Origin: Deltaproteobacteria bacterium
GTDB lineage: Bacteria; Desulfobacterota; BSN033; WVXP01
Length of the DNA: 64,000 nt
Assembly: GCA_019308905.1 (NCBI GenBank)
Contig: JAFDHF010000003.1
Coordinates: 10,282-74,281, forward strand
Direction: 5' to 3'
Shown piece by piece: positions 9,576 to 63,132 of the stretch. Within the stretch, counting starts at the first letter, position 1, and each line of letters starts with the position of its first letter. Both the position numbers and the translations under genes were made by a program. The notes below the pieces were generated by a model, which was not told where the DNA came from, did no database searches, and saw only the letters and a list, made by a program, of their open reading frames with translations.

Positions 9576-9586
9576 AATACCGGACA

Positions 9587-10141: not shown

Positions 10142-10147
10142 GGGTCC

Positions 10148-38964: not shown

Positions 38965-39010
38965 TACAGGACATGCGCCCTTTTGGGGCCGGTGGAGGCG
39001 GTCCCTGGCC

Positions 39011-40634: not shown

Positions 40635-42065
40635 ATGAACGAAATCAAGGACGGCAACCCGAGCTTTCTTCTGATCGGGCACTACCGGTGCGGCACCTCT
40701 CTGCTGAGGCACGTGATCAACCGCCACTCCAGACTGCTACTGACGACGGAGGCTCATTGGCTCCCCCAGGTGTTTCAGGCCGGGGCGGTCTTCCAGAAAT
40801 TCTTCGAGGTTAACCCCGTTGAGTTTGAACTGAACGAGTTGCCCCTGCAGAGAACTTCCCGCTGGTATCATGGGATTCGTGCATTGCACTCGGCTCTTTT
40901 CGAAGAACATCGGGACAAGATATGGGGCATGACAGTAATCGGCCACGGAAACGCCGCATACGCCGATTATCTGTTTACCCTGTATGGGGAAGCCAAGTAC
41001 GTCCTGGCGATTCGTGATCCGAGGGATATTTACCTTTCATATCTTCGAACCAATATCGGGGGGGAATACGGTGCGTATACGTTGAAGACCTTCTTGAACC
41101 ATCTCAATATGAACGGCTTGCCGTACCTTGTAGTTCGATATGAGGACATGGTCATTGACCCGAGGAGACAGATAGAGAGGCTGTGCTGTTTTCTCGGGGT
41201 GGACTATGAACCGGGTATGCTGGAGCCACTGACTCGCAGACTGTCCGGGAACTTGACGCCGGCCCTCCAAAGGGCCGCTTTGAACGAGGAGTATCCGGTG
41301 GGAAATCGGGCACTGGTCGAAAGGTGGAAGTCCCAATTGACCGACGAGGCACTCCTGAGACTGAACGATCAGGTGGATGCCATCGATCAGTTGGGATACC
41401 CGGTCGTCAGGGCCGAGGGTGCCGGGTTGCGCCACAGCATCAGAGACGAGGTCTCGGGGACCTTGATCGGCATGAAGGACTCCCTTACCAAAAGGGATTG
41501 TTTCTCGGGTGCCCTTCCTGAAAGGGTCGACATTCTTTCGGCAGGGGCGTTCGGGATCCGATTTCAGAACCGGCCTGGCAACGGCACGGCAAGAATCAGA
41601 ATCGATGGTTTCGGAGAACTCGCTGAGAGCATGGAGTCGCCCCTGCTTTACTACCATGCCGTCTACGGATCTCCTTTACCCTTCCATCCTGTCTATGGGG
41701 AGTCTTTTCCCACTGAGAGGAAGTGGAAGTATCTGTTGAAACAGAACAAGAGGAGGCTCCTGCTCTTTTCCGCCGGAGGTGCGACCAGGGCGTTTTTATC
41801 AGGGCAAACGATCCCGACCTCGGAATTCGAGATCGTAGGCGTGATCGACAATCACAAAAGGGGATTCATGGACCATGGGGGCAAGCGGTACAGGATCTAC
41901 CCGCTCAAGAAGGCACTGGAAGTCGACCACGATGCGATTCTCATCACCTCTCCCACCTTCCGTCATGAGATAAAGGAGTGTTTGGTCAAATGCGGGCTCA
42001 GGGAGAACAGGGATTTCTACTGCTTTTTCCCAAGCCGGTGTGCGGGGAGTGGAAAGTTCGAATGA
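40635..42065 (+). CDS. Sulfotransferase (P-loop 5'-PSB type) fused to Rossmann-like PglD/NeuD-N-like module
   Basis: FLLIGHYRCGTSLLRHVINRH is the PAPS 5'-phosphosulfate-binding loop. C-terminal RLLLFSAGGATRAFL...FEIVGVIDNHKRGFMDHGGKRYRIYP...DAILITS is the repeated module. Confidence 0.7.
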   Translation: MNEIKDGNPSFLLIGHYRCGTSLLRHVINRHSRLLLTTEAHWLPQVFQAGAVFQKFFEVNPVEFELNELPLQRTSRWYHGIRALHSALFEEHRDKIWGMTVIGHGNAAYADYLFTLYGEAKYVLAIRDPRDIYLSYLRTNIGGEYGAYTLKTFLNHLNMNGLPYLVVRYEDMVIDPRRQIERLCCFLGVDYEPGMLEPLTRRLSGNLTPALQRAALNEEYPVGNRALVERWKSQLTDEALLRLNDQVDAIDQLGYPVVRAEGAGLRHSIRDEVSGTLIGMKDSLTKRDCFSGALPERVDILSAGAFGIRFQNRPGNGTARIRIDGFGELAESMESPLLYYHAVYGSPLPFHPVYGESFPTERKWKYLLKQNKRRLLLFSAGGATRAFLSGQTIPTSEFEIVGVIDNHKRGFMDHGGKRYRIYPLKKALEVDHDAILITSPTFRHEIKECLVKCGLRENRDFYCFFPSRCAGSGKFE

Positions 42066-46896: not shown

Positions 46897-47859
46897 ATGC
46901 CTTCGTTTATTTGCGATTTCTTGAAGGAGATCGTCGTCTTGTCCGACGGTGGTGTGACAACCTGCTGCATGGATCCCCTGGGAATGAACCGTTTCGGCAG
47001 CATTTACAGGGACAGCTTTGAAGATATCCAGGCAAGATATATGAGCGTCCGCCGGAGAATAACGAAAGATGTTCTCCTTATGCCCCGATGTTCCAGGTGC
47101 TTCAATAAGATCAAGGAACAAGGCTTTCCCGAGACGGGGACTTACAAGGTCGATCCGGATTCAGCAGAAATCAGGAGGTTTATCGACAGAGGAAGGGACG
47201 ATGTATTTCAGCTCGTGATCGAGCTTTCTTCCAAATGCAACCTCAAGTGTAATGGCTGCATGCAGAGCCGGGTGAATTTTGAAGAATACAGGGCCGATCC
47301 TTTCCTCGACGTCGACTATCTGCAGTCATGGGTGGGCCGATACTGGGGCGAAGTCAAGAAGATACGCCTCTACAATTACGGTGAGACTTTCATGCACCCG
47401 GGGGCACTGGGATTCTGCTCTTTTGTCAAGAAACACGGTCCTGACACCGTGGTTGAGATTGCGACCAACGGAATGCTGCTGGATACGCACGAAAAGAGAA
47501 GGGAAATCGTCTTGTCCGGGGTCGACGATATCGTCTTTTCGATTCACGGAAGCAGCCAAGAGATCATACAGAAGTATATGACCAGGAAGTTCTCTTTTGA
47601 AAAGGTTCTGGATACCTTGAAGGACCTTGCAGCGATCAAGCATGAGCTCGGCTTCTCGAAGCCGAGATTGTTCTGGAAGTATCTCCTCTTTGAATGGAAC
47701 GACTCGGACGAGGAGATAACGAGGGCTAGAACCTTATCCAGGGAAATCGGGCTTGAGGGCGTGATCTTCGGCCTGGTGGGATTTCCGGCCCCTTCAAGAC
47801 GTTTTACACGACACAGCGAAGAGTGGAAACGCCTCGTGAGGGAATCCCAGGCTCTTTGA
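46897..47859 (+). CDS. Radical SAM domain protein
   Basis: SSKCNLKCNGC (CxxxCxxC). An additional N-terminal Cys pair/cluster (TTCCMDP...CSRC). Confidence 0.65.
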   Translation: MPSFICDFLKEIVVLSDGGVTTCCMDPLGMNRFGSIYRDSFEDIQARYMSVRRRITKDVLLMPRCSRCFNKIKEQGFPETGTYKVDPDSAEIRRFIDRGRDDVFQLVIELSSKCNLKCNGCMQSRVNFEEYRADPFLDVDYLQSWVGRYWGEVKKIRLYNYGETFMHPGALGFCSFVKKHGPDTVVEIATNGMLLDTHEKRREIVLSGVDDIVFSIHGSSQEIIQKYMTRKFSFEKVLDTLKDLAAIKHELGFSKPRLFWKYLLFEWNDSDEEITRARTLSREIGLEGVIFGLVGFPAPSRRFTRHSEEWKRLVRESQAL

Positions 47860-47902
47860 GACTAGGTGGCGATTCTCTCAGTTCTTTGTGAAAGGGTAGG
47901 TC

Positions 47903-49057
47903 ATGGAGGAATGGTCTCCGCCGAAGAGATGGAATCCTTTCAACAGCAACAAACTCCTAGCCCAGGTATACCGGTGGCGCCTGATAAAGAGGGGAGCCTC
48001 TCTGCCTCAACCGGTTCTCGTCACGGTCGACCCGATAAACGCATGTAACCTGAGATGCACGTGGTGCAATTCCCGGTTCGTGTTGAGAAATCGGAACGGA
48101 ATGATAGATCGAGAAGCGCTGATGGAAATCGCAGAGGGTCTGGCCCGCTGGCAGGGCAGTCCTGACTGGCCGGCCGGGGTTGAGGCGGTCTGCATCGCGG
48201 GTGGAGGGGAACCTCTCCTGCATCCTGATGTTGGCGCTTTTATCGAATCCTGCATCGACAATGGGATCGAGGTGGGGGTGGTTACCAACGGAGTCAATAT
48301 CGACAGGTTCATCCCCCAGCTCGCCCTCTGCACTTGGGTAGGGGTTTCGGTGGATGCCGGTTCTCGCAAGACGTTCGAATCACTCAAAGGGAGGGACCTT
48401 TTCAACGAGGTCTGCAGGAACATGAGGAGTCTGTCGGACTATCTGTCGCGGAATGCCTGTACCTTAGGCCGCGAAGGCTCGGGCCGGGGGGTGAGCTACA
48501 AGTATCTACTGTACGACGGGAATATCGACGAGGTTTTCGAGGCAGCGAGGATAGCAAAGGAGGTGGGGGCCAAGAACTTTCATCTCCGTCCCGCAGGAAC
48601 CCCGTGGCATCTTCTCCCTGGGAGAAGTGGGTCGGTTTTTCACGGAGATGCCAAGATGAGACTCGGTGAGCAGATTGACAAGGCCCGTGAGCTCGAAGAT
48701 GAAACCTTCGGTGTCTATGCGATTACGCATAAGTTCGGTCCCGAGTTGGAGATCGCGAACAACTTCGACACATGCCATGCTATCTTCATGACAGCGGTTT
48801 TCATGCCGCCGAGGGATGAGAGAAGAGAGAGGTTTTGCGTGAGCTGCTGCTGTGACAGGCGCGGCGACCCCAGGCTGGAGTTTGGAGAATCTCTCAGGGA
48901 ATTCAAACAGGTGGAAGAGTTGTGGGGATCCGAGAAACACTGGCAGATATTCGACCGGATCGATCTGAAAGATTGCCCGCGGTGTACTTACGCACCCCAT
49001 AATCAGATGTTCACCCAGGTCATAGAGAGAGATGACATGACCTATAAGTTCATCTAG
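47903..49057 (+). CDS. Radical SAM / SPASM-domain protein
   Basis: NACNLRCTWC, and a C-terminal CVSCCCDRRG...DCPRCTY Cys cluster. Confidence 0.75.
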   Translation: MEEWSPPKRWNPFNSNKLLAQVYRWRLIKRGASLPQPVLVTVDPINACNLRCTWCNSRFVLRNRNGMIDREALMEIAEGLARWQGSPDWPAGVEAVCIAGGGEPLLHPDVGAFIESCIDNGIEVGVVTNGVNIDRFIPQLALCTWVGVSVDAGSRKTFESLKGRDLFNEVCRNMRSLSDYLSRNACTLGREGSGRGVSYKYLLYDGNIDEVFEAARIAKEVGAKNFHLRPAGTPWHLLPGRSGSVFHGDAKMRLGEQIDKARELEDETFGVYAITHKFGPELEIANNFDTCHAIFMTAVFMPPRDERRERFCVSCCCDRRGDPRLEFGESLREFKQVEELWGSEKHWQIFDRIDLKDCPRCTYAPHNQMFTQVIERDDMTYKFI

Positions 49058-49104
49058 CGGTCACCGAAGAATGCGCCTTTCAAACCCTATCTGGATATGA
49101 GGCT

Positions 49105-49923
49105 ATGGAGAAGGTAAGCATTGTCATTCCGAATTATAACCAGGTGAAATACCTCCCCGCATGTATCGACAGTTGCTATTTTCAAACCTATCCGAATATC
49201 GAGCTGATCATTGTCGACGGGGGGTCGACCGACGGAACAAAAGAATATCTGGCAGGCCTTGAGCAGAGGATCGAAAGCGAGAAGGTCGCTCCTGTACTCT
49301 ATATGGACGGGAACGGAGAGATAGTCTACAAGGAGTGCCTGGCCTACCATGAAGACACCCATGCCGAACATCCGAAACGTGAAATAAAGATATTTTCTTT
49401 TCGTGAAAACCTGGGCAGGACGCGCTCTTATAATGTGGGTTTCAAAGAAGTCACGGGTAGATACTGCACATATGTCGTCGGGGATGACATTGCGCATCCC
49501 CATATGATAGAAGAACTCGTTTCGGCGATAGAGGCAAGTAACGCGGATGTGGTCTATTCCGATTTCAATATAGTCGATGATACAGGGCACATCCTCCGTC
49601 TCGTGCGCAAACCGGACTACGATTTTGAGGAATGTCTTGCCAAGTGGTTCCATCTAGGCGTTTCCCGCCTTCACCGGTCGTCATGGTTCAAAAAAGTGGG
49701 ATTCATGGATGAGGACTTCCGGGTGGCCAACGATTACAGCTTCTTCCTCAAGATGGCCAAAGCCGGGGCGACCTTTCATCACGTCGCGAGGGTCCTGTAT
49801 TCGGTCCGCTTCCACGGTGCCGAAACGGACCTGGAGGAATCTAAGAAGCTCGCTTTAGAGGCAAGGCGATTCATCTGTTCAGGCGGGAGGAAAGAGGAGC
49901 AACTCCACCTTAACGGTGTATAG
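49105..49923 (+). CDS. GT2-family glycosyltransferase
   Basis: VSIVIPNYNQVKYLPACIDSCYFQTYPNIELIIVDGGSTDGT is the GT-A signature. Confidence 0.85.
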   Translation: MEKVSIVIPNYNQVKYLPACIDSCYFQTYPNIELIIVDGGSTDGTKEYLAGLEQRIESEKVAPVLYMDGNGEIVYKECLAYHEDTHAEHPKREIKIFSFRENLGRTRSYNVGFKEVTGRYCTYVVGDDIAHPHMIEELVSAIEASNADVVYSDFNIVDDTGHILRLVRKPDYDFEECLAKWFHLGVSRLHRSSWFKKVGFMDEDFRVANDYSFFLKMAKAGATFHHVARVLYSVRFHGAETDLEESKKLALEARRFICSGGRKEEQLHLNGV

Positions 49924-50998
49924 AGACACGGCAATGACAAGACTGAGAAGACTCGTGATCGAAGTTAGCAATCGATGCAATCTGAGATGCAGGACTTGTA
50001 CGGATAGGCCCCTGAACGGTCCCATTATTCAGCCTGAGGCCTTTGAGGGGATCCTGAAGAAAGTCTCCAGTCCGGATGACATCGAACTTGTCAGGTTTGT
50101 AGGGGCTGGTGAGACATTACTGGTACCCTATTTTGACGAAATGGTCGCCAGGGCGACCAAGGCGTTTCAAGACACGGAGGTGAACTTCTTCACCAACGGG
50201 ATGCTACTGGAACACAGGCTGGTAGAATCCCTTCTAAGACGGAACGTGAGGGCATACATCACCCTATCGATGGATGCCGCTACACCTCATGTGTTCGAGT
50301 ACATCAGGCGAGGGGCTTCTTTCGACAGGATTCTAAAGAACATAGAGAATATCGGCAAACTGAAAGAGGACTATGGCTCCAGATATCCTGTATTGAAAAT
50401 CAACTTCACCATGTTGAAGCACAACGTCAAAGAGATTCCCAAGATGGTCAAATTAGCCAGTGATCTCAACATCGCGGAGATCGTATTCTCGCAGATGGGA
50501 GTCAATGAATCGATTGAATTCGCGAGGATCGACCAGCATCCATTCTATGGAGACAACAGGAAAGCAACCAAACAGGCCCTGCTGGAGGCGCGGGAGTTGG
50601 CACAAGCCTGTGGAGTCGTAGTCACCGCCACGTGGCCACAGGTTTTCGGTTGGACGGAACAGTACTCGGACCGGCACGAACTCGCAGAAGGACTGGGTGT
50701 GGAGTTGAGATATGAACCGTGTGTGTGGGCATTGTCGGCTTTACTGGTGAACATCAGGGGGGACGTATATCCCTGTTGCCGGCACAGTACCGCGTTTGGA
50801 AACATCAAGGATCGCGATGACCTGATCGCTCTGTTCGATTCGGATGAGGCGGAGAGCCTGAGACACAGGTTGTTGAACGGACAGGCCGTAAGGGAATGTG
50901 ACAACTGCATCTGGTACAACCGCTATTCGTTCAGGCATGATAATGAGTACTATTGGATATCGGAAAGCATGTTCGGCAACACAGTCAACATACGATGA
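49916..50998 (+). CDS. Radical SAM / SPASM-domain protein (paralog of 37756-38964)
   Basis: VSNRCNLRCRTC, and a C-terminal Cys cluster (CVWAL...YPCCRHS...CDNCIWY). Collinear similarity to the 37756 gene product. Confidence 0.75.
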   Translation: MYRDTAMTRLRRLVIEVSNRCNLRCRTCTDRPLNGPIIQPEAFEGILKKVSSPDDIELVRFVGAGETLLVPYFDEMVARATKAFQDTEVNFFTNGMLLEHRLVESLLRRNVRAYITLSMDAATPHVFEYIRRGASFDRILKNIENIGKLKEDYGSRYPVLKINFTMLKHNVKEIPKMVKLASDLNIAEIVFSQMGVNESIEFARIDQHPFYGDNRKATKQALLEARELAQACGVVVTATWPQVFGWTEQYSDRHELAEGLGVELRYEPCVWALSALLVNIRGDVYPCCRHSTAFGNIKDRDDLIALFDSDEAESLRHRLLNGQAVRECDNCIWYNRYSFRHDNEYYWISESMFGNTVNIR

Positions 50999-52634: not shown

Positions 52635-55049
52635 GTGATGAATCTGGAACTGCTGGCCATAGAGTATTCCTCCCGTATGGCGAAGAGGTGGTATCTCCAT
52701 CCTGATTTCGCCTCTATCGGGTTGTACGAGGGCGTCCATCTCGGAGAGTGCAGCGAGTACACGGTATTCCGTGAGTTGATGCGGATTGTCAAGTTCAAGC
52801 TCCTGACCTGCCGGCCCGGTGGCCCAGGAGCCCTGCCGCCGGAAAGCATGGAAGGGCCGTCACTGAGAAAGGCAAGGCAATCCCGCCTGCTCTCTTTCGA
52901 ACAATTGGCCGCCTCTGCTCGCATCACAGACCAGGATTCGCCAAGGCCCGCCATCCTCCTCAGCGTTCGAGCCCAGAATCTGGCCCTCGCCCGTGCCCTG
53001 GACAGCAGCGGTGTTTTCGACCTCGTTGTCGAGGGCAACAGAGAAGCCATATCCCGGCCCCTGATCCGGAACGGGATCGACTACGAGAGATTCGAAGACT
53101 TCCTCACCCCTGAGATAAGGCTCGCGTGTGAGGCAAGGTTTGCGGCTCTCATGCCCCTTTGGATGGAGGCCGTTGAAGGTAAGTCCTTCCAGGCCCAGTT
53201 TTCATTGGGAGAGACGAGCCTTTTCCCTGAAATCGGGGACAGCCTCCGGAACCTCTTTCAAGGGGAGTTCCTGCAAGAGGCGCTGTACATCGAAACCCTC
53301 AAGCATCTTGTCCGGCAGCGGCGGCTCGTGATGGTTCTGGTCTGGAATGACAGCCTGCCCCTTCACAGGGCACTGGTGCTCTTTGCACAGGAAGCCGGGG
53401 TCCCGGTGCTCCACGTTGCTCACGCGATTTACGGAATGGAACCTACAAACGAAGTCGTCTATGCCGACAGAATCGCCGTTTACGGGGACCACAGCAAGGA
53501 GCTCTATGTGGGGAGGGGAAATCCACCCGAAAAGGTGGTCGTTACCGGGAACCCGGACTGGGACAAGTACAAGTACCTGCACACGGTACTGAGTAGAGCC
53601 GAAGTCTGCCGATCCCTCGGGCTTGACCGGAGAAAACGGATCGTCCTGTTTGCTACGTTCTTTGTTGCCGGTCCCATGGCGGCGGCAGACTCTTCGCTGC
53701 CGAAGAGGTTCTTCCAGACTCTCCTCAGGTCGATAAAGCGGCTAGGGTCTCGGTATCAGATGCAGCTCGCAGTCAAACTCCACCCGGCCGAACGGGACAG
53801 GGGATCCTGGTACCGGAGGATTGCAGCCCAAGAGGATATGGGAGACGTGGTGGTCGAAGCAGGCCATTTGGAAGAACTCCTCTTTGTCAGTGATCTTCTC
53901 ATATGTCGGGGATCGAACATCGGTTTCGAGGCCCTCTTGCTGGGCAAGCCCGTCATTTCCTATGGTTTGCCTGTGCGAGGCGAGGAAGAGGCGGTGACGA
54001 TCGTCAAAGACTCTTCCGAACTCACCCGTGCGATCGAAAAGAGCCTTTTTGACTATACCTACCGGGAAGCACTGGAGAAGAAAAGAGAAAAAGCAATATA
54101 CAGATTTAATTACCTGTGGGATGGCAGGGCAACCCATCGGGTGCTGGGTCTGATCGAGGAGATGACCGGTATCGATATAAGGATTCCGGATGACTTTGTT
54201 CCATTCACCCTCTCCGGATCTGGAGGAGTGGGGGATGACGGCAAACCGAAAGAAGAGTTCGGAGCGCCCTTGCTGGAGGAGGGTGACTACGCCGATGCCA
54301 GAGGAGAGTTTGAAAAAGCATTGGACATCTATCGGACGGCTCAGAAGATGTATCCATCCTCGCCGGAGCTTCTCAAACGGCTCGGCAGGACCCTGCTCAA
54401 GACCGGGCGCCTTGATGAAGGGATGGAAAGTCTGAGTGCCCTTATCCGGATAGACCCTGAAAACATGGAAGGCCATCTGCTGATGGCCCTGGCTTTGTAT
54501 TCCCAGGGAAGGCACTCCTCGGCGTTGAATCACCTGAGGTCGGTCCTCGGTTCGAAGCGGTCCACAGAGGAAGAGCGGAGATTGGCTTACCTTCACACCG
54601 GACGGTGCAAGAGGGCGATGGGGGACCTCGAAGGTGCAGAGGACGGCTACCGGGAGTGCCTTCTGCTTGACCCTGATTCAAGAGAGATCCTAAAGGAACT
54701 AGGCAGTCTCTATTTTGAAACGGCAAGATTCGACCTGGCACACAGTGCTCTTCGTAGAGTTGTCGCAGAGGATCCGGGTGATACAGAGGCACTCAGTGAT
54801 TTGGGGGTCGTGCTCTTTCACATGGGGGAGGTTGAAGAGGGAAAGTCATACCTGAGAAAGGCTCTGGAGCGAGACCCGGACCGCTTCGAAACCATGGCCA
54901 ATCTGGCGGAGGTCGAAAGAGCGGAGGGACACCTCGAGAACGCTCTGGCCCTTGTAGGTAGATTCCTCGAGAGAAATCCCGATATGGAGAGGGCACGGCG
55001 GATATACGATGAGCTCCATGCAGAAAGTTCTGGTGATTCAACTGGCTAG
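52635..55049 (+). CDS. GT-B-like transferase (KLHP/HP-motif, CMP-sugar-type candidate) with C-terminal TPR repeats
   Basis: Central ...HVAHAIYG...VVVTGNPDWDKY...AVKLHPAERD... resembles the capsule-synthesis/sialyl-type HP motif. The C-terminal 250 aa are TPR repeats. Confidence 0.5.
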   Translation: MMNLELLAIEYSSRMAKRWYLHPDFASIGLYEGVHLGECSEYTVFRELMRIVKFKLLTCRPGGPGALPPESMEGPSLRKARQSRLLSFEQLAASARITDQDSPRPAILLSVRAQNLALARALDSSGVFDLVVEGNREAISRPLIRNGIDYERFEDFLTPEIRLACEARFAALMPLWMEAVEGKSFQAQFSLGETSLFPEIGDSLRNLFQGEFLQEALYIETLKHLVRQRRLVMVLVWNDSLPLHRALVLFAQEAGVPVLHVAHAIYGMEPTNEVVYADRIAVYGDHSKELYVGRGNPPEKVVVTGNPDWDKYKYLHTVLSRAEVCRSLGLDRRKRIVLFATFFVAGPMAAADSSLPKRFFQTLLRSIKRLGSRYQMQLAVKLHPAERDRGSWYRRIAAQEDMGDVVVEAGHLEELLFVSDLLICRGSNIGFEALLLGKPVISYGLPVRGEEEAVTIVKDSSELTRAIEKSLFDYTYREALEKKREKAIYRFNYLWDGRATHRVLGLIEEMTGIDIRIPDDFVPFTLSGSGGVGDDGKPKEEFGAPLLEEGDYADARGEFEKALDIYRTAQKMYPSSPELLKRLGRTLLKTGRLDEGMESLSALIRIDPENMEGHLLMALALYSQGRHSSALNHLRSVLGSKRSTEEERRLAYLHTGRCKRAMGDLEGAEDGYRECLLLDPDSREILKELGSLYFETARFDLAHSALRRVVAEDPGDTEALSDLGVVLFHMGEVEEGKSYLRKALERDPDRFETMANLAEVERAEGHLENALALVGRFLERNPDMERARRIYDELHAESSGDSTG

Positions 55050-56685
55050 AATGGGGGACGTCCTCCAATCATCGGCGCTCGTCCAGGGCATCAGGGAGAA
55101 GAACCCGGATGCCATGGTCACCTTTCTGACAAGTGAGAAGACAAGGGACGTGGCCAGCAGTATAGGTGGTGTTGACGACGTCATCAGTCTCGATTTTGGC
55201 CAGGCTTCAGGCATTGCAAGTGACCGAGAGGCCGGGCTGTCGGAAAGGTACCGTCGCCTGTCGTCCCTCTTGAATGATCTCAAAGGGAGATGTTTTGATC
55301 TTGTCTATAATCTCAACTACTCGTGTGTGAACACCGGTCTGATGAACCTGATCCGCTACAGAAGAGCCCTCTGTTACAGCCTCGACACCAGCAGGAGGCA
55401 GATCGTGAAGAGCCCGTGGCTCAGCTACCTGTTGAGCATGCTGGGAGACAGACGGCTCAACCTGTTCAATCTCGTCGATCTGTATCTTAGGGGATCTGGA
55501 CTTTCCGTTCGGAAACCCTCCCTCTCTTTCCAGTTGGACAGAAGGGCCATGGACTCAGTCGACCGGTTCCTCACCGGGCAGGGTATCCAGCACCGGGAAC
55601 GGTTGGTGGGGTTCCAACTGGGGGCAGGCGACTCGGTCAGGTGTTGGCCCGTTGATTCCTACAGGGTTCTGGCAGATCGGTTGATCCGGAGACGGGGTGT
55701 GAGGATTCTCCTTTTCGGCACCTCCTCTGAGACGCCCCAGGCAGAGGCGCTGAAGGCGTGTTTCACGGCAGAAGGGACGGACCCGACCCGCAGGGGACTG
55801 GTCATCGATCTCGTTGGGAAGACCAGCACCAGGGAGCTGGCCTGCTTCTTGAGGCGTTGCGACCTCCTCGTAACGCCGGATACGGGCACCATGCACCTTG
55901 CCTGCGCCGTCGGCACCAGGGTTCTCGCACTTTTCATGGGATCGGCATTTCCCCATGAGACCGGCCCTTATGGCACGAATCACTTCGTTCTCCGACCGGT
56001 GCTTCCTTGCTATCCCTGTTTTGAGGGGGGGCCTTCCTGCACCAGTCAGGAGTGCAAGAGACTGATCCGGCCCGAGAAGGTGGCCCTCGTGGTGGAGAGA
56101 CTCCTGGCCGGGAACAACGGGGATCTGGAAAAGGGAGTGTCTGACTTCCTCGATTCGAACCTGATCCTTCTCCGCTCGGCAATGACACCCGATTGCGTCG
56201 GGTACAGCAGGGTCTGCCAAAGCACCGCTTCTCTTGAGGACGTCTTTGCCCTCGCATACCGCGCCATGTGGCAGGGCGTGCTCGATGAGGACCGGATCTG
56301 TGACTCCTCCGGGCAGGCGAATGTCCTGGAAGCTCTCGCCGTGCCTTTGCACGGTGGAGACCTGGTCGGTGATTTGAAGGAGGCCGAAAGGGATTTTGAC
56401 AGACTTCAAAGGATGCTCGCGGCCTACGGTGCATCGATGCGGGGTGGAAATGGCCCGTCGGGCCCAGACTTGAACCTCATGGCGGCCACCCTGAGATCAG
56501 AGGAGGACAAGAGGAGTAGGTGGGCAAAGCCGATACCGCGTTTCTTCGACGTGGAGTATGCCAATATCCGACTCTCCGGGAGAGATGTCAACAGGCGGGT
56601 GGAGAGACTGGTGGGAGGGCTTGCCTGGGGGGCCGGCTTCATGAAGGCCTTTGTCAGGCGGTTAGTGAGAACTCTCTCTTCCTGA
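55009..56685 (+). CDS. GT9-like (heptosyltransferase-fold) glycosyltransferase with C-terminal extension
   Basis: KVLVIQLARMGDVLQSSALVQGIREKNPDAMVTFL and TPDTGTMHLACAVGTRVLALF match the GT9 N-terminal and nucleotide-sugar-binding motifs. Confidence 0.7.
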   Translation: MSSMQKVLVIQLARMGDVLQSSALVQGIREKNPDAMVTFLTSEKTRDVASSIGGVDDVISLDFGQASGIASDREAGLSERYRRLSSLLNDLKGRCFDLVYNLNYSCVNTGLMNLIRYRRALCYSLDTSRRQIVKSPWLSYLLSMLGDRRLNLFNLVDLYLRGSGLSVRKPSLSFQLDRRAMDSVDRFLTGQGIQHRERLVGFQLGAGDSVRCWPVDSYRVLADRLIRRRGVRILLFGTSSETPQAEALKACFTAEGTDPTRRGLVIDLVGKTSTRELACFLRRCDLLVTPDTGTMHLACAVGTRVLALFMGSAFPHETGPYGTNHFVLRPVLPCYPCFEGGPSCTSQECKRLIRPEKVALVVERLLAGNNGDLEKGVSDFLDSNLILLRSAMTPDCVGYSRVCQSTASLEDVFALAYRAMWQGVLDEDRICDSSGQANVLEALAVPLHGGDLVGDLKEAERDFDRLQRMLAAYGASMRGGNGPSGPDLNLMAATLRSEEDKRSRWAKPIPRFFDVEYANIRLSGRDVNRRVERLVGGLAWGAGFMKAFVRRLVRTLSS

Positions 56686-56701
56686 GAAGGGATAGCGAGC
56701 C

Positions 56702-58537
56702 ATGGACCTTTTTGAAAGAAATCTCAAGATTCTCAATCGGATCGACGGTAGTCTCGCCAGGAGAATGGAAAGAACCAGGGCTCTGCCCTCAGCCGAAGTC
56801 CTCGAGGCAAAAAACGGCAGCCTGACATTGAAGGTCGATGGTGCGGCCTTGCACAGCACGTACGATCCGGTGAGAGAGGCGATGGTCTCGGTGGAGAGAT
56901 TCCTGGAAAAGGAGCCCGGGCCGGGGCCGATCTTCGTTCTGGGCCTGGGGTTCGGATACCATGTGGAGAGGCTTCATAGGGCGGCTCCCTCCTCGCCTCT
57001 GATCCTTGTCGAGCCCACTCCGGGGATCTTTCGACTCGCCCTTGAAAAGATCGAGATGGAAGGAATCCTCGCGCCGTGCCGCCGTGTTTTCGTGGGAGAG
57101 GCCGTTGATGAGGTCTTTGCCAGAATCAATGAGAAATCCCTTCTCCGAGGCGGGTACCGGGTCTTCGTGCACCCCCCGTCCCTTAAGATGAGCCGGGCCT
57201 ATCTCGACCGGCTGCTTGCCGGGCTTGAGGCAAGGGAGATTCTGGCAGGACTGAGGCTCAACATACTGGTCGTGCCACCGGTCTACGGGGGATCCCTCCC
57301 TGTCGCCGACTACTGTGTCCGAGCCCTGAGGAGAATGGGCCACACGGTCACCACGGTTGATAACTCAAAATATCTCGGACTCTTCAAGGAGATCGAAGGG
57401 GTTACGACCAATCGGTTTCACCAGCGTCAGTTGCAGGGTTCTCTCACCCAGCACCTCTCGGAGATCGTGATGGCAAGATGCCTGAACCTGAAGCCGGACT
57501 TGATCCTCGCCCTGGCCCAGGCCCCACTGACTCCTGAGATTCTTGACAGGATGAAGAGGTTTGGGATGCTCACGGCATTCTGGTTCGTGGAGGATTTCAG
57601 GGAGCTTCCCTACTGGAGAGAGGTGGCGGCTGGATATGGTCATTTTTTTGCCATCCAACGTAGAGAGGCCTTTGAAGAATCGGGCGGACTCGACGGAGTG
57701 GATTTTCACTATCTGCCCCTGGCCTGTGACCCACGTGTTCACAGGCCAGTGATACTCAATGACAGGGAGAGAAAACGCTACGGTTCTGAGGTCTCCTTTG
57801 TAGGAGCCGGCTATTACAACCGGCGCGTGTTTTTTGAGGGGCTCCTTGATTTGGATTTCAAAATTTGGGGAACAGAATGGGATCTCCTATCTCCTTTGAG
57901 CCGTGCGGTCCAGGAAGGGGGCCGGAGGGTCACAGCCCGGGAAGCCGTAAAGATCTTCAACGGGTCAGCGATCAATGTCAATCTCCATTCTTCCACATAC
58001 CACAGGGGGGTCAACCCGGCAGGGGATTTTGTCAACCCCAGAACCTTTGAGATCGCATCGAGCAGGGGGTTTCAACTCGTCGACCGCCGGTCCGACCTGG
58101 GTGAGCTGTTCCAACCCGGCCGGGAGCTCGTCTGCTTCGAGACCATAGAGGATCTCCGAGACAAAATCGCCTACTATCTGTCCCACAGAGAGGAGAGGGA
58201 AGAGATTGCGGCAAATGGCCAGAGGAGGGCCCGAAGGGATCATACCTATCAGAAGAGGATGACAAGGATTCTGGAAGCGGTAGTGGAAGGGAACCTCTCC
58301 CGTTTCAGGGAACTAAAAAGGAGCATCCAGACACCGGAGCGGTTGATCGCCGAGGCAGGGCCCGAAACGGAGCTCGGGCGATTCTTGAGGCGTTTCAGGG
58401 ACAGGGACCGCCTGACCCTGGATACGATAACCTCCGAGATCCGCCGCGGCCGGGGGAGGCTCACCGAGCCTGAGGTTATCTTCCTTTTAATGGAGGAATT
58501 CTCCAAGCAGGGCAGGAAAAGTCTGGGAGAGCAATGA
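56702..58537 (+). CDS. Maf-like (DUF115) + CgeB-like (Glyco_trans_1_2) flagellin glycosyltransferase candidate
   Basis: N-terminus MDLFERNLKILNRIDGSLARRME...IFVLGLGFGYHVERL is DUF115/Maf-like. The C-terminal half (...FEIASSRGFQLVD...REEREEIAANGQRRARRDHTYQKRM) is CgeB-like. Confidence 0.65.
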   Translation: MDLFERNLKILNRIDGSLARRMERTRALPSAEVLEAKNGSLTLKVDGAALHSTYDPVREAMVSVERFLEKEPGPGPIFVLGLGFGYHVERLHRAAPSSPLILVEPTPGIFRLALEKIEMEGILAPCRRVFVGEAVDEVFARINEKSLLRGGYRVFVHPPSLKMSRAYLDRLLAGLEAREILAGLRLNILVVPPVYGGSLPVADYCVRALRRMGHTVTTVDNSKYLGLFKEIEGVTTNRFHQRQLQGSLTQHLSEIVMARCLNLKPDLILALAQAPLTPEILDRMKRFGMLTAFWFVEDFRELPYWREVAAGYGHFFAIQRREAFEESGGLDGVDFHYLPLACDPRVHRPVILNDRERKRYGSEVSFVGAGYYNRRVFFEGLLDLDFKIWGTEWDLLSPLSRAVQEGGRRVTAREAVKIFNGSAINVNLHSSTYHRGVNPAGDFVNPRTFEIASSRGFQLVDRRSDLGELFQPGRELVCFETIEDLRDKIAYYLSHREEREEIAANGQRRARRDHTYQKRMTRILEAVVEGNLSRFRELKRSIQTPERLIAEAGPETELGRFLRRFRDRDRLTLDTITSEIRRGRGRLTEPEVIFLLMEEFSKQGRKSLGEQ

Positions 58538-60279
58538 CGTTGAACCGTGGGGGAGGCAAGAAGATACTGATCATCAATCTGGCCCGCATGGGTGATCTCC
58601 TCCAGATGACGCCCTTCCTTAAAGGATTTTGCAGGGAACGGCCTGGCGTGAGAATCACCCTTCTGGTTCTCAAGGAATTCTACGACGTCTGTAAAGGTTT
58701 TCCCTGCGTCGAAAGCGTGGAGACCTTCGATGGGGACGGCTACATTTCACGTCTGGAAGACCCGGGTTGTTCTCTTGTCGAAAACTTCAAGACGATCCAA
58801 GATCTGGTGGAGGACCTGAGAAACAGAGGGTTCGACACGGTCATCAATCTGACCTTTTCGAGACTTTCCGCTCTGCTCACCTACCTGCTCATGGTCGAGG
58901 ACGTGCGAGGAATAACGATCGACGACCATGGAAACCGCCTGGTGAAAAACCCCTGGATCAACCACTTCTACAACATGGTCACCAAACGGGAGATAAACCT
59001 CTTCAACTATGTGGATTTCATCAGGAAGGCCGGCGGATCGGATTCACCCTCTTCCATGCATGTGGACATCTCAGAGGCCGATCAGAGGTTCGCGGGAGCC
59101 TTCTACGCTCGCCGGAGCGTCTCGGATGAAGATTTTGTGGTGGGCTTTCAGCCAGGAGCCAGCAAGGAGAGCAGGAGGTGGCCCACCAGGTCCTTCGGAG
59201 ATCTGGGAGGAGCCCTGATCGAGGATGGAGCCAAGATCCTTCTCTTTGGGACTGCCGCGGAAAAAGAACTCGGGGAAGGGATCGGCCGATGCCTTTGCTG
59301 TGCCCAGGACCGTAGGGAGGGGCATCTGTTCGACATGACGGGGAAGACCTCTGTGGGACAGCTCGCTGCCCTGATCAAGAGGTGCGACCTCCTGGTTACG
59401 GGTGATACCGGCACCATGCACGTAGCCACGGCCGTGGGCACTCGAGTGGTGGCCCTCTTTTTTGGGCCCGCCTTCTATCCTGAGACCGGTCCTTACGGAG
59501 AGGACCACCTTGTCATACAGACCGATCTGCCCTGTGCACCCTGCGGTCACGACGTGCGGTGCAAGAATCCCCGGTGCCGGGAATCGATCAAGGTTTCCCA
59601 TGTCTTACAGGTGATTAGAATGATACGGGAGGGTTTTCCGGAGAGAGAGGTACAGGTCAAAGACGGCCCCGAGTGGGCGGGGATCAGCCTCTACCGGGGA
59701 GTTTTCGACGAGGAGGGGATGCTCGAGTTTCGTCCGGTGATCCGGAGGCCCCTCGCACCCATGGACCTCATCCGCCAGGTCTACCGGGAGATGTGGAAGA
59801 TCGTGCTGGACGGACGGCCCGGCAAGATCGATCCCGCCAGGGTAGGCGAGAAGGTGAAGAGCCTCTTTGCCCTGGACGGAGTCCGATTGAATCTGGATAG
59901 GGAATCGGAAATCTTCGAGAGAGTCGCCGGGCTCGCCCGTGAGGGGAGCGAGATTTCCCGAAAGCTGGTCCGATGGGCCGGAGACGTGCGAGAGCACCTC
60001 GCCTCGATAAAGAAGGCGGGAGATGTGATCCACCGCATCGACGAAGAGATCGAACTCCAGGGAATGGCCCACCCCGCATGCCATCCTCTGACCTACATGT
60101 TTCGCCAGGGCAAGGAGAACCTCGAAGAAGGGGACCTGGGCCTTTTGTCGAGAAAGACACTCGGGCTCTATGCGACCCTCCTTCGCGAGGCTGTCCTGAT
60201 GAGGTCCGGTCTGCAGGAGACCCTGGCCTGTCTCAAAGGGCCTCCACTGGGGAGAGAGACAGGAGATGGCTCTTTTTGA
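58534..60279 (+). CDS. GT9-like glycosyltransferase with C-terminal extension (paralog of 55009-56685)
   Basis: KILIINLARMGDLLQMTPFLKGF and GDTGTMHVATAVGTRVVALF. Collinear with the upstream GT9-like gene. Confidence 0.7.
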   Translation: MTLNRGGGKKILIINLARMGDLLQMTPFLKGFCRERPGVRITLLVLKEFYDVCKGFPCVESVETFDGDGYISRLEDPGCSLVENFKTIQDLVEDLRNRGFDTVINLTFSRLSALLTYLLMVEDVRGITIDDHGNRLVKNPWINHFYNMVTKREINLFNYVDFIRKAGGSDSPSSMHVDISEADQRFAGAFYARRSVSDEDFVVGFQPGASKESRRWPTRSFGDLGGALIEDGAKILLFGTAAEKELGEGIGRCLCCAQDRREGHLFDMTGKTSVGQLAALIKRCDLLVTGDTGTMHVATAVGTRVVALFFGPAFYPETGPYGEDHLVIQTDLPCAPCGHDVRCKNPRCRESIKVSHVLQVIRMIREGFPEREVQVKDGPEWAGISLYRGVFDEEGMLEFRPVIRRPLAPMDLIRQVYREMWKIVLDGRPGKIDPARVGEKVKSLFALDGVRLNLDRESEIFERVAGLAREGSEISRKLVRWAGDVREHLASIKKAGDVIHRIDEEIELQGMAHPACHPLTYMFRQGKENLEEGDLGLLSRKTLGLYATLLREAVLMRSGLQETLACLKGPPLGRETGDGSF

Positions 60280-62035
60280 GAGGAACCGGGAGGCCCTGGC
60301 AAGGACCTTTCCCAAACTGGCCGAGAGGATCGACAGGGCCCCCGATAAGAGCGGGTCTATCGATGTCTTCCCCTCCCGTCGAGGGCCGATGACCTGTAAG
60401 GCCTTGGGCTCCGACGGCCGATGGTTGACCCTCCATAGCACGGTGGATCCAGACAGGGAAGCAGTGCTCACCCTCAACAGGGTCAAGGATCTGGACAGAG
60501 GGATCGTGGTCGTACTGGGGATGGGCCTGGGGTACCCGCTTCTGGCCCTGGCAAGACGGCTGGGGAAGGGCCGGAAGGTCGTTTTCGTGGTGGAGAGAGA
60601 CCCGCTGCTGTTCCGGCTCTCCATGCAGCTGTTCGACTGGACGGGGCTCCTGGCGAGGAGAGACCTCCATCTCCTGATCGGGGATGAAGTCGACGAGATC
60701 CTCGGGACGGTCACAAGAGTCCGTATGAGATCCGGGTTTCAGGATCTGGTGGTCATTCCTCACAGGCCTTCGATCCGGAGAGATCCGGGCTTCTACGGCC
60801 CCCTGTTGGACCAGTTGCGCCTTATCGAAGCCTCGCCGCTCAGGTCCAGGCTGGACTACAGGCACCTGAGACGAGATCAGCTGACGGTTCTGGTGCTGGA
60901 TTCGCATTACTTTCTCGTCAGAGAGTGCATAAAGGCGCTCAGGAAACTAGGGCACAGGGTCCTGAGGGTTCCCCTGTCCGAGACTGGACTCGTAGGGTCG
61001 ATCCTCGGCCGGGTCGTAAGGGAGAGACCGGACTTCCTCCTCTCGGTGAATCACCTGGGCTTTGACGAAGATGGAAAACTGACCGACCTTCTCGGAGCAC
61101 TCAGGCTGCCCTACGCGGTCTGGTATGTCGACAGTCCGACCTTCATAATAAAGGACTTCAGGAGAAACATCTCCTCGTACTGTGCCCTCTTTGTCTGGGA
61201 CCGGTCGTATTTGGAACGGATGAGACAGTTTGGATTCGACCACGCCTGCTACCTCCCCCTGGCCACGGATCCTTCGGTCTTCAGGCCGATAGTGCCGAGT
61301 GCCGTGCCCGCCCGCTTCCGGGGGGCGGTCAGTTTTGTGGGCAACTCGATGAAGGAAGCCGTTGATGAGTGGTCCAGGCGGTTTCCCCATAGCGAGCGGA
61401 CAGAGGCCGTTTCACGCCTGGCTGTCGCGTTCCAGATCAGCCACCCCCATGTATCAATGGAAACGATTCTCGAGACCGTCGGCAGGGAGCAGGGCCTGCG
61501 GGTTGAGTTTGAAGATCCGGTCCACTATCTGAACTTCCAGGCCTCACTGGTATGGCGGGCCACCCTGGAGTTCCGAAAGAGGCTTGTGGAGAGCCTGGAA
61601 ACCCTGGGCATTCGGATCTTCGGAGACAGAGGGTGGCGTCAGATTCTGGACGGGAAGGTGAAAATATCCCCCCCCGTGAGTTACTACAGAGATCTACCCC
61701 TGGTTTTCAACGGTACGGAGGTGAATATCAATGCCACGAGCTTTCAGATGAATTCCGCTGTAAACCAGCGGGTCTTTGACGCGGCCTCTTGCGGAGCATT
61801 TCTCGTAACCGACTATCGACCGGATATGGACATCCTGTTCGACCGGAAACGGGAAGCGGTCTGTTACGGAGATCCGGCCGAGGCCAGGGACCAGGTGGCA
61901 TACTATTTGAAGCACGAGGGGGAAAGGATGAAGATCGCCGAAAGGGCGAGACAGAGGATCCTGGAAGAACATACCTACTGTCATCGGATTCGGGAGTTGA
62001 TAGACGTCATGAGGGAGAAGTTCGGATCTTTCTGA
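60266..62035 (+). CDS. Maf-like (DUF115) + CgeB-like glycosyltransferase candidate (paralog of 56702-58537)
   Basis: MALFERNREALARTFPKLAERID...VVVLGMGLGYPLLALARRL, and C-terminal VFDAASCGAFLVTDYRPDM...EEHTYCHRIRELI. Confidence 0.65.
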   Translation: MALFERNREALARTFPKLAERIDRAPDKSGSIDVFPSRRGPMTCKALGSDGRWLTLHSTVDPDREAVLTLNRVKDLDRGIVVVLGMGLGYPLLALARRLGKGRKVVFVVERDPLLFRLSMQLFDWTGLLARRDLHLLIGDEVDEILGTVTRVRMRSGFQDLVVIPHRPSIRRDPGFYGPLLDQLRLIEASPLRSRLDYRHLRRDQLTVLVLDSHYFLVRECIKALRKLGHRVLRVPLSETGLVGSILGRVVRERPDFLLSVNHLGFDEDGKLTDLLGALRLPYAVWYVDSPTFIIKDFRRNISSYCALFVWDRSYLERMRQFGFDHACYLPLATDPSVFRPIVPSAVPARFRGAVSFVGNSMKEAVDEWSRRFPHSERTEAVSRLAVAFQISHPHVSMETILETVGREQGLRVEFEDPVHYLNFQASLVWRATLEFRKRLVESLETLGIRIFGDRGWRQILDGKVKISPPVSYYRDLPLVFNGTEVNINATSFQMNSAVNQRVFDAASCGAFLVTDYRPDMDILFDRKREAVCYGDPAEARDQVAYYLKHEGERMKIAERARQRILEEHTYCHRIRELIDVMREKFGSF

Positions 62036-62057: not shown

Positions 62058-62714
62058 ATGCGAGTCTGTGTAGACGATCTCGAAGAAAAGATGGAGTTCC
62101 CCCCCGGGTTTTCCCTCGGGGAAATAATCAATCAGCTCTGTACCGAGAAGATCTCTCAGGACAGGGTAATCACCCGGGTTCGAGTCAACGGAGAGGAACT
62201 CGCTGAGGATGAGAGCGGCCTTTTTCCGGATGTTCCGGGCGGTGAAATAGATTCGTTGGAACTCGAAACAGAACACTCCTTTGAAACAGGGTACCGGGGA
62301 ATCGTGGATGCAAAGGAGTATCTGAAGAAACTCACCTCCGGAATTCAAGAAACGGCCGAACTCTTCCGGACGGGAGAAGAGAAGAGGGCTCACAATCGGT
62401 ATGCTCTCTGCATGGAAGGAATCAACTGGTTCATCCAAATCCTGGAAGGGGCGAGGCAGGTGATGGGCCTCGACTACGGTACGATGGTCTTCAACCGGGT
62501 TTCGGTAGACTCCTATATCGAAAACCTCCAGCATATCATCGGCGAAATGTTGTCAGCCCAATCCGATGAAGACTGGGTGATGCTGTCCGACCTTCTCGAG
62601 TATGAACTGCTGCCGACTCTGGAAGGATGGAAGGGGATCGTTCCCCTCATAGAGGAAGCGGCCAGAAAGCGGTGGGAAGAGGCAAAAGGCGGTGAAGCGA
62701 CCAGAGGGGGGTAA
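62058..62714 (+). CDS. Hypothetical protein
   Basis: 218-aa ORF following the island. No recognisable motif. GGAGG RBS upstream. Confidence 0.4.
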   Translation: MRVCVDDLEEKMEFPPGFSLGEIINQLCTEKISQDRVITRVRVNGEELAEDESGLFPDVPGGEIDSLELETEHSFETGYRGIVDAKEYLKKLTSGIQETAELFRTGEEKRAHNRYALCMEGINWFIQILEGARQVMGLDYGTMVFNRVSVDSYIENLQHIIGEMLSAQSDEDWVMLSDLLEYELLPTLEGWKGIVPLIEEAARKRWEEAKGGEATRGG

Positions 62715-63132
62715 GGGCAGAGGCCCTGAAACGAGACTTCTCCAGCTTCTCGCTCTTGCCAAGGAGCTTTGCGGTCTAACAGAGCGCCAGAGGGACGCGA
62801 TCCGATCAGGAGACTGGGAGCGCCTCAATGCGATTCTTGATCAAAAGGACCGATTGATCCATGCCTTCCAGGAGATGGAGGCGTCCGTGAAAGACGGGGA
62901 GGCGCCCGAGCAAACGGATACCTCCCCTGCGAGTGCCGAAAGCCTGCTGGCAGCCATCAAATCGAAGCTGACCGACACCCAATCCATTGAGGAGGAGTGC
63001 GAGCGCTTGCTGGTGGAAGAGAAAAACCGGACTGCCGTGACCCTCGGACAGATCAGGAGGCTCCACGACGGGATCAGGAGATTTGTGTCGCGGAGGCCTG
63101 GATCCGCAAGGTTTGTCGACCTTCGAAAATAG
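62692..63132 (+). CDS. Hypothetical coiled-coil protein (possibly FlgN/FliT-like chaperone)
   Basis: Helical, Leu/Glu-rich (LLQLLALAKELCGLTERQRDAIRSGDWERLNAILDQKDRLIHAFQEME). Assignment is tentative. Confidence 0.3.
   Translation: MKRPEGGKGRGPETRLLQLLALAKELCGLTERQRDAIRSGDWERLNAILDQKDRLIHAFQEMEASVKDGEAPEQTDTSPASAESLLAAIKSKLTDTQSIEEECERLLVEEKNRTAVTLGQIRRLHDGIRRFVSRRPGSARFVDLRK

Follow-up and report, generated by a model that had tools for sequence, protein, structure and literature searches.

A four-gene cassette carrying Maf-like accessory domains on two kinds of glycosyltransferase, a candidate heteromeric flagellin O-glycosyltransferase

Filament assembly in many bacteria requires flagellin glycosylation, and detailed dissection has so far covered only two classes of flagellin-recognising enzymes, Maf and FlmG. 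In a 64,000-nucleotide stretch of DNA from a Deltaproteobacteria bacterium (hereafter the window), an island of flagellar sugar-decoration genes ends in glycosyltransferase genes of two kinds, A and B, which alternate in the order A1-B1-A2-B2. The original prediction read them as an (A,B) unit duplicated locally in tandem, with B as a Maf-type nonulosonic-acid transferase. Does this locus encode a variant of a known flagellin-modifying enzyme or a system built on another plan? The cassette, apparently never studied (literature on CgeB or DUF3880 with flagellin or flagellar yielded nothing relevant), most likely encodes a heteromeric O-glycosyltransferase for flagellin that has yet to be characterised and would add a third architecture to those of Maf and FlmG.

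Genes, pairing and age of the cassette

The four open reading frames are intact and all lie on the forward strand. A1 (55009-56685, 558 aa) and A2 (58534-60279, 581 aa) encode long GT9-family glycosyltransferases, and B1 (56702-58537, 611 aa) and B2 (60266-62035, 589 aa) encode a Maf N domain followed by a GT-B domain of CgeB/YkvP type, GT4-like in B1. Neighbouring genes had been described as overlapping by 4-14 nt; read directly from the sequence, this is so for B1/A2 (4 nt, ATGA) and A2/B2 (14 nt), whereas A1 and B1 are separated by a 16-nt spacer with a Shine-Dalgarno-like motif, GAAGGGA. No frameshift or internal stop was seen in the four genes and all four proteins keep the residues invariant in their families; therefore none is a pseudogene.

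A1 and A2 are 34% identical across 424 aa (E 6e-72), and B1 and B2 are collinear end to end at 26% identity (E 5e-34), likenesses that, judged from sequence, are far above chance. The predicted paralogy thus holds for both pairs, with exact coordinates, but its dating does not. These low identities, together with the finding that A1, A2, B1 and B2 each form a separate cross-phylum orthologue group (B1 orthologues are 42-48% identical across phyla), rule out a recent tandem duplication: the copies arose long ago and are not redundant. An A2-type gene directly follows B1 in 75 of 80 species-level genomes, usually with the ATGA overlap, so that the universal core is the translationally coupled pair B1->A2, which straddles the boundary of the modules first proposed. 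The pairing of a Maf-like protein with a GT9 enzyme, initially called unusual, is therefore the rule within the family, which was found in at least 572 species-level genomes of environmental bacteria, including Nitrospinota and Nitrospirota, carriers that matter to the nitrogen cycle. Six genomes have A and B fused into one polypeptide, the B member being of B2 type and its partner an A-type GT9. A1-type genes are nearly confined to loci with B2 (13 of 14), and A1 falls in a neighbour-joining (NJ) clade of 10 GT9 genes, every one upstream of B1. Since the alternating order, A-B-A-B or B-A-B-A, is conserved, it is still plausible that an A/B pair was duplicated in a distant ancestor. The B1+B2 split appears in 8 of 20 bootstraps of the NJ tree, which weakly supports a single origin of the fusion of Maf N domain and CgeB-type enzyme.

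Domain architecture of the B and A proteins

B1 and B2 share one Pfam architecture: Maf_flag10_N (PF20157; E-values 4e-8 and 2e-9, respectively), DUF3880 (PF12996; 28 and 53 bits) and Glyco_trans_1_2 (PF13524; 125 and 118 bits). The catalytic region thereby has the combination of PF12996/YkvP_N with PF13524 by which the CgeB/YkvP type is recognised. In B1, the Maf N domain (aa 1-185; 56702-57256) precedes the GT-B domain (aa 186-528; 57257-58285) and a B1-specific helical tail (aa 529-611); in B2, which lacks such a tail, the N domain spans aa 1-195 (60266-60850) and the GT-B domain aa ~200-589. The predicted relatedness of these N domains to Maf is borne out by a Maf-family HMM, which scores 127 bits in B1 over Maf positions 1-182 and 180 bits in B2 over 1-183. 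The whole Maf N domain is present, including its LHSxYDPxxEA, GxGLGYH, E and HxPS motifs. Used alone as a query, the B2 N domain retrieved 1102 cluster representatives, and 70 of the 79 full-length matches scanned were genuine MptE-like Maf proteins. The AF2 model of B1 (pLDDT 93.3, pTM 0.90) matched GT-B enzymes of the TreT/BshA/MshA/PglA type in Foldseek, as well as the Maf structure 5MU5 (E 4e-8), which was also the sole PDB match of the B family profile (E 7e-6); phmmer of B2 against PDB gave nothing useful.

The name Maf/DUF115 given to this N-terminus was correct in its first half only. The DUF115/MptE-like domain (PF01973) has no Pfam match in B1 or B2, the Maf HMM alignment ends at about position 183, and a six-frame HMM scan rules out a DUF115 hidden in B as well as a canonical Maf in the rest of the window. 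The catalytic domain by which Maf transfers a CMP-nonulosonic acid to flagellin Ser/Thr is replaced by a GT4-like GT-B, and B1 and B2, without the central PF01973 domain, thus fall outside the Maf family. It follows that nonulosonic-acid transfer, the function first proposed for B, cannot be assigned by homology, nor can the donor sugar be inferred from Maf. The Maf C domain is likewise not found on B (the B1 tail scores 2% against it in hhalign); a bundle like it is located on the adjacent A proteins. Seven columns are invariant in the B family (W294, N445, R447, F449, D461, H514 and R519).

Databases label the B proteins 'spore maturation protein CgeB' because their catalytic region belongs to the same Pfam families as the Bacillus enzymes. 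The label is misleading: B1 and B2 add the Maf N domain, lie in a flagellar context and occur in phyla that are not known to form spores (Nitrospirota, Nitrospinota and Thermodesulfobacteriota). The A proteins are in turn mis-annotated as 'ADP-heptose:LPS heptosyltransferase'. As predicted, the DUF3880/Glyco_trans_1_2 pair is also found in the gene at 10148-13333.

A1 and A2 match Glyco_transf_9 (PF01075) with 82.8 and 113 bits against a cut-off of 22, have a predicted GT-B fold superposing on WaaC/WaaF, and carry the N-terminal Asp and C-terminal DTGxxH motif of GT9 catalysis. Both continue in a C-terminal extension of ~220 aa without any Pfam match. In A1, the GT9 core (~aa 1-345) is followed by a Cys4 motif and a helical extension (~aa 348-558) that scores 92 bits with the A-family C-domain HMM. 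In A2, the core (aa 1-365; 58534-59628) includes Cys334/337/343/348 and is followed by a small beta element (aa 384-401) and a bundle of helices (aa 409-568; 59758-60237) with likeness to the Maf C domain, flagellin and FliS. D21 is kept in 107 of 109 A-family members and D291, G293 and H296 in all 109; A1 retains the equivalents of these four residues and all four Cys. From motif resemblance, we take the Asp residues to correspond to WaaC D13 and D261. Both proteins score below every cut-off of the NCBIfam LPS heptosyltransferase equivalogs I/II/III (WaaC/WaaF/WaaQ), the best scores being 88 and 90 bits against cut-offs of 134.6-569, which rules out ordinary LPS heptosyltransferases. Other GT9 relatives include V. 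parvula 3TOV and the BAHT enzymes TibC/Aah, protein O-heptosyltransferases whose hallmarks are a GT9-like fold, a Cys-ligated iron finger and dodecameric assembly; A differs from these and from WaaC and WaaF in its extra 220-aa domain and its obligate position next to B.

Flagellar setting and presumed acceptor

The window runs from flgI through flgK-flgL-flagellin-flaG-fliD and ~50 kb of sugar genes to the cassette and a FliT/FlgN-like gene, confirming the flagellar-glycosylation setting first described, a genomic context that Maf has too. The presumed acceptor is the flagellin (6362-7204, forward strand; 280 aa, Flagellin_N/C, D0/D1 only), whose central loop (aa 141-195) contains 29% Ser+Thr against 14% in its flanks. 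Immediately upstream of the cassette, a gene (52635-55049, forward strand) whose stop overlaps the A1 start encodes an 804-aa glycosyltransferase with a Glyphos_transf/Capsule_synth/BFO_1060-type domain and a C-terminal TPR array (Pfam/NCBIfam); its homologues lie just upstream of a B2-B1-A cassette at four loci (L006, L026, L066 and L069). Downstream, a conserved 218-aa protein (62058-62714, forward strand) matches no family in the Pfam/NCBIfam copies searched; its homologue at locus L001 carries DUF8042, and its gene lies 3' of the cassette at L001, L003-L005 and 18 of 80 genome loci. Both proteins are probable associated components.

Two alternatives were weighed. In the first, which we regard as unlikely, B1 and B2 transfer nonulosonic acids to flagellin as Maf-type enzymes, each with a GT9 partner, in two recently duplicated modules for two sugars or site classes. 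The Maf N domain is genuine, and the island has genes for a NeuB-type synthase and a PseF-like cytidylyltransferase but none for a canonical Maf, which leaves transfer of the CMP-sugar to a different enzyme; that Pse or Leg can be transferred by a GT-B domain is known from FlmG. Against this stand the missing DUF115/MptE-like domain, a B catalytic domain structurally closest to GT4-type NDP-sugar enzymes, and an ancient duplication in which the conserved pair is B1->A2, not A1+B1 or A2+B2; moreover, the role of nonulosonic-acid transferase would suit the 804-aa protein at least as well.

In the second, somewhat more doubtful still, the cassette is not specific for flagellin but modifies another protein or a surface polysaccharide, and sits in flagellar islands of some lineages through clustering of sugar genes. 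CgeB/YkvP-type and GT9 enzymes act classically on spore-coat glycans and LPS, respectively, 64 of 80 loci have no filament gene within 10 kb, and at a Nitrospinaceae locus (L084) the flanking genes are those for PGK, RNase E/G and MTHFR. However, the other 16 genomes do have a flagellar context, and the informative neighbours belong to the filament (flagellin, fliD, flgK/L) and are not a random set. Flagellin glycosyltransferases are the only known source of the Maf N domain, which retrieves them specifically, the helical bundle of A looks like flagellin and FliS, a FliT/FlgN-like gene lies 3' of the cassette, and A1 and A2 fall under all LPS heptosyltransferase cut-offs. As for Nitrospinaceae, flagella are encoded in Nitrospinae core genomes (PMC5029188).

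A proposed 'split Maf' plan and its relation to known systems

From the observed domain architectures, predicted folds, catalytic-type residues, synteny, fusions and flagellar context, we somewhat favour a 'split Maf' plan, with a heteromeric system in the cytoplasm that O-glycosylates flagellin. Canonical Maf joins three parts in a single polypeptide: an N domain, the catalytic DUF115 domain and a helical C domain resembling flagellin/FliS. Here, the N domain is carried by a GT4-like GT-B (B) and the Maf-C-like bundle by a GT9 GT-B (A). A and B would associate while being translated in a coupled manner, or through a covalent link where they are fused, and the bundle, with the Maf N domain, would recognise flagellin or a flagellin-chaperone complex. 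The two unlike catalytic domains would add two different sugars, successively or at different sites. B1 and A2 would form the core and A1 and B2, as ancient paralogues, would add further steps or specificities, which would let the window's strain build a more complex glycan. The donor of A is probably an ADP/NDP-heptose-like sugar; that of B may be an NDP-hexose or possibly, by analogy with FlmG, a CMP-nonulosonic acid.

The cassette can thus be viewed as a natural dissection of Maf, with the accessory domains on separate proteins and unrelated catalytic domains, re-fused in some lineages, which makes directly testable the idea that the N and C domains form an acceptor-recognition unit. More tentatively, A and B could form an obligate complex, a third flagellin glycosyltransferase class beside Maf and FlmG, with Maf N/C as a portable, separable recognition device on unrelated folds (DUF115, GT4-like and GT9). 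If so, two or four enzymes working as one machine could build an oligosaccharide directly on flagellin, and the Maf N domain would gain a function as docking partner of the helical C domain. Such modular acceptor-recognition domains are of practical interest for glyco-engineering.

It is quite improbable that one partner has no catalytic role and serves for specificity or as a chaperone, like GtfB, the catalytically dead GT-B partner in the GtfA/GtfB O-GlcNAc transferase that modifies serine-rich adhesins, and that each A/B pair adds one sugar only: two adjacent, apparently cooperating GT-B proteins, accessory domains on both and this precedent speak for it, whereas catalytic-type motifs vary little or not at all in A (D21 and DTGxxH) and B (the W294 to R519 columns), and B1 is conserved at 42-48% across phyla.

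The 'split Maf' plan has partial counterparts in two known systems. FlmG of Caulobacter/Brevundimonas likewise keeps acceptor recognition, by a TPR flagellin-binding domain, apart from a GT-B catalytic module (PMC7591256; bioRxiv 10.1101/2022.03.25.485807). TPR families have no Pfam match in A1, B1, A2 or B2, where recognition would use the Maf-N and Maf-C-like domains and two catalytic proteins stand in place of one; the FlmG plan is followed in the window by the TPR-glycosyltransferase fusions of 1061 and 804 aa, both outside the cassette. In Shewanella, Maf-2 needs a helical-bundle partner to engage flagellin, the FliS/FliT-like stand-alone adaptor GlfM (89 aa, encoded in cis downstream), and interconversion of split and fused forms has been discussed for this pair (bioRxiv 10.1101/2023.12.03.569772), which is matched by the A~B fusions described above. 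Here, the bundle instead forms the C-terminus of another glycosyltransferase that appears to be active. Two small genes lie 3' of the cassette, that for the 218-aa protein and one for a 146-aa FliT/FlgN-like helical protein (62692-63132, forward strand; weak PF05130/PF05400 matches). The latter gene occupies the same position at L001, L004 and L005, and its product may, speculatively, be a chaperone or a GlfM-like adaptor.

The A1-B1-A2-B2 cassette and its domains

The four genes called in the original prediction are all present as open reading frames on the + strand, with exactly matching ends: A1 (55009-56685, 558 aa) and A2 (58534-60279, 581 aa), two long GT9-family glycosyltransferases, and B1 (56702-58537, 611 aa) and B2 (60266-62035, 589 aa), in which a Maf N domain precedes a CgeB-type GT-B region. 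The proposed collinear paralogy also holds, A1 and A2 being 34% identical across 424 residues (E 6e-72) and B1 and B2 26% identical and collinear end to end (E 5e-34). All junctions had been described as overlapping; read directly, B1/A2 is indeed an ATGA overlap and A2/B2 a 14-nt overlap, but between A1 and B1 lies a spacer of 16 nt, in which GAAGGGA resembles a Shine-Dalgarno motif. The start of A1 is overlapped by the upstream 804-aa gene. The N-terminus of the B proteins had been announced as Maf/DUF115: the family match to the Maf N-terminal domain stands, but a scan with the Maf HMM found DUF115 nowhere in the window, B included. With these two small corrections the observation is confirmed, and its interpretation is partly supported.

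Pfam assigns Maf_flag10_N, DUF3880 and Glyco_trans_1_2 to both B1 and B2. With residues 1-195 of B2 as query against 1.84 billion cluster representatives, we obtained 1102 matches aligned across the whole domain. Among 79 full-length matches scanned with Pfam, 70 carry the MptE-like (DUF115) domain, and are therefore real Maf proteins, and nine carry Glyco_trans_1_2. The B-family profile has a sole match in the PDB, Maf (5MU5, E 7e-6), and hhalign relates the B and Maf families with 100% probability (E 4e-39), the Maf HMM aligning to B only through position ~183. The AF2 model of B1 (pLDDT 93, pTM 0.90) also matches 5MU5 (E 4e-8), and contains a GT-B catalytic region whose nearest solved relatives are the GT4-type TreT, BshA, MshA and PglA. 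The first ~190 residues of B are a genuine Maf N domain. Because this domain is present and a GT4-like GT-B region stands in place of DUF115, the domain that defines Maf, B is not a Maf but a domain-swap relative of it. Residues 529-611 of B1 (window 58286-58534) form a conserved helical tail of ~80 aa that B2-type proteins do not have; its consensus in B1-type proteins, LIxEAGxxTELGxYLxRF...GEGxL...IFLLMNE, gives a weak sub-threshold match to HTH_31, and hhalign finds the tail unrelated to the Maf C domain.

In A1 and A2, Glyco_transf_9 covers the first ~340 residues and leaves ~220 C-terminal residues without Pfam assignment; both proteins fall below every LPS heptosyltransferase equivalog cut-off of NCBIfam, which sets them apart from these enzymes. 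The A2 model (pLDDT 94, pTM 0.93) displays a GT9 core, then a Cys4 cluster with a small β element, then a long helical bundle (aa 409-568). The catalytic-type residues D21 and D291-T-G-x-x-H296 are (nearly) invariant across the A family, A1 included. The Cys4 cluster, kept in 93 of 109 family members, may bind a metal and is reminiscent of TibC, a protein heptosyltransferase with an iron finger. In A2 it spans Cys334-Cys348 (window 59533-59577), with an equivalent in A1. As judged from profile alignments, the helical bundle resembles the Maf C-terminal domain (hhalign 93.4%, E 2.4e-7, 129 columns; 1-2% with reversed columns and <1% with unrelated parts). Reciprocal HMM searches between A and Maf gave matches confined to the corresponding C-terminal regions, in register and up to 26 bits, with reversed decoys at ≤6 bits.

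Gene order and fusions among relatives

A ‘Deltaproteobacteria bacterium’ MAG is the source of deposited proteins that match A2, and part of B1, identically, and the closest genome locus among the matches listed, from a Thermodesulfobacteriota MAG, is 63% identical. B1 relatives are encoded in at least 572 species-level genomes. B1 is the best-conserved type, with 42-48% identity across Nitrospirota, Nitrospinota, Latescibacterota and Thermodesulfobacteriota; B2-type and long GT9 proteins are likewise widespread. Database labels for these proteins read ‘spore maturation protein CgeB’ and ‘ADP-heptose:LPS heptosyltransferase’.

We counted gene orders in the best 80 loci of these at least 572 genomes. 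An A-type gene or an A~B fusion lies directly 3' of B1 on the same strand in 75 of the 80, with a gap of ≤20 nt or an overlap in 68 of the 75 (commonest value -4, i.e. ATGA). The universally coupled pair is B1→A2, which runs across the boundary of the modules originally drawn, A1 with B1 and A2 with B2. B2-type genes are found within 10 kb in 28-33/80 loci, depending on whether fusions are left out or counted, and A1-type genes upstream in 14/80, 13 of which also have B2. In an NJ tree, the A1 clade (10 members) contains exclusively genes upstream of B1 and the A2 clade (62 members) exclusively genes downstream of it. The order A1-B1-A2-B2 is shared by the window and the loci L001, L004 and L045, B2-A1like-B1-A2 by L063, L080 and L081, and B2...B1-A2 by many Nitrospirota. 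Since these orders and clades recur across loci, the A/B alternation is ancient and conserved. In six genomes, A-type and B2-type genes are fused as a single ORF of 950-1190 aa, with domain content confirmed by Pfam in four, such as P0364 (1190 aa; GT9 + Maf_N + DUF3880 + Glyco_trans_1_2). Such fusions are classic Rosetta-stone evidence of physical or functional partnership. The cassette architecture, its fusions and the breadth of its distribution would be new to specialists; most carriers are uncultured, Nitrospina sp. 32_T5 (L057) being a cultured one.

Flagellar context and proposed working

The window carries late flagellar genes (flgI, rod-binding protein, flgM, flgN, flgK, flgL, a 280-aa flagellin, flaG and fliD), followed after fliD by ~50 kb of co-oriented glycan genes, an island that the cassette closes. 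The flagellin is of the short D0/D1 type with 29% Ser/Thr in its central loop, the same kind of loop that a C. botulinum Maf modifies (PMC11339370). Beyond the window itself, 16 of the 80 loci have filament genes (flagellin, fliD, flgK/L) at a distance of ≤10 kb, and L002 has them too. In Nitrospinota, whose core genome encodes flagella (PMC5029188), the cassette and a large TPR-GT-methyltransferase gene sit among housekeeping genes. One Thermodesulfobacteriota MAG has a gene for a genuine Maf of 494 aa (Maf_N + MptE-like; L044:8380-9864) between an A1-like GT9 gene and B1, which shows that a single operon can house both a canonical Maf and the split cassette.

The flagellin glycosyltransferases already known have a modular build, with a C-terminal TPR employed by Maf-1. 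FlmG binds flagellin by a TPR domain and selects Pse/Leg by a GT-B domain (PMC7591256; bioRxiv 10.1101/2022.03.25.485807), and Maf-2 requires GlfM, a FliS/FliT-like helical adaptor encoded in cis (bioRxiv 10.1101/2023.12.03.569772). Unlike FlmG, neither A nor B has TPR repeats. By analogy, the cassette would work like these modular enzymes while probably lying outside all described classes; our literature searches found no paper tying CgeB/DUF3880-type or GT9 enzymes to flagellin. We observed the architectures and folds of the cassette proteins, their conserved residues, their synteny and their fusions, and infer the function throughout: the cassette would be a cytoplasmic flagellin O-glycosylation system, with acceptor, donors and order of action proposed on the same analogy. 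A and B would associate as a complex, in which the helical bundle of A and the Maf N domain of B would jointly rebuild the machinery by which Maf recognises its acceptor. Two different sugars would be added by the GT9 domain and the GT4-like domain, either to Ser/Thr of flagellin or to a glycan under construction, with B1 and A2 as the core and A1 and B2 contributing further steps or specificities. The cassette would make the role of the Maf accessory domains testable.

Immediately 3' of B2 lie a gene for a 218-aa protein (62058-62714), without local Pfam or NCBIfam match but with an L001 homologue carrying DUF8042/TP0873_N, and, overlapping it, one for a 146-aa FliT/FlgN-like protein (62692-63132), then a response regulator. 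Both genes follow the cassette in L001, L004 and L005, and the 218-aa gene in 18/80 genomes. Either protein may serve the system as chaperone or as an adaptor of GlfM type.

Sugar supply and other genes of the island

Two glycosyltransferases of the window share the FlmG layout: a 1061-aa protein (10148-13333; GT4 + DUF3880/Glyco_trans_1_2 + TPR) and the 804-aa protein (52635-55049; Glyphos_transf/Capsule_synth/BFO_1060-type + TPR). In many genomes, TPR-GT homologues immediately precede B1, the Nitrospinota forms being additionally methyltransferase-fused (L036, L084). Both window proteins, and B itself, are candidate transferases for the CMP-nonulosonic acid of the island. A NeuB-type synthase N-terminally fused to a KdsC/Kdn-9-phosphate-phosphatase-like HAD domain (20750-22276), a GmhA-like SIS isomerase (23226-24032) and a PseF-like cytidylyltransferase (24127-24774) are also encoded. 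None of them reaches its own equivalog cut-off, which suggests that the nonulosonic or ulosonic acid pathway is not a standard one.

Methyltransferases and several enzymes of the GT2 and GT4 families also belong to the island. So does a tailoring set unusually heavy for a flagellar glycan: seven radical-SAM enzymes, of which several have SPASM domains and one is B12-binding, plus a sulfotransferase and an AsnB-type amidotransferase (genes at 28267-29703, 37756-40510, 46897-50998, 40635-42065 and 25218-27098). Neither Pfam nor NCBIfam matches two adjacent large ORFs of 518 and 768 aa inside the island (33042-34598 and 34595-36901). On the minus strand, ORFs of 209-232 aa (5498-6181, 9572-10201 and 19844-20542) have no family matches, occupy the few gaps of the otherwise all-plus window and may be spurious, the DNA being 56% GC. 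A NusG/KOW paralogue inside the island (19153-19713) may act as a specialised antiterminator of RfaH/UpxY type for the ~50-kb co-oriented array.
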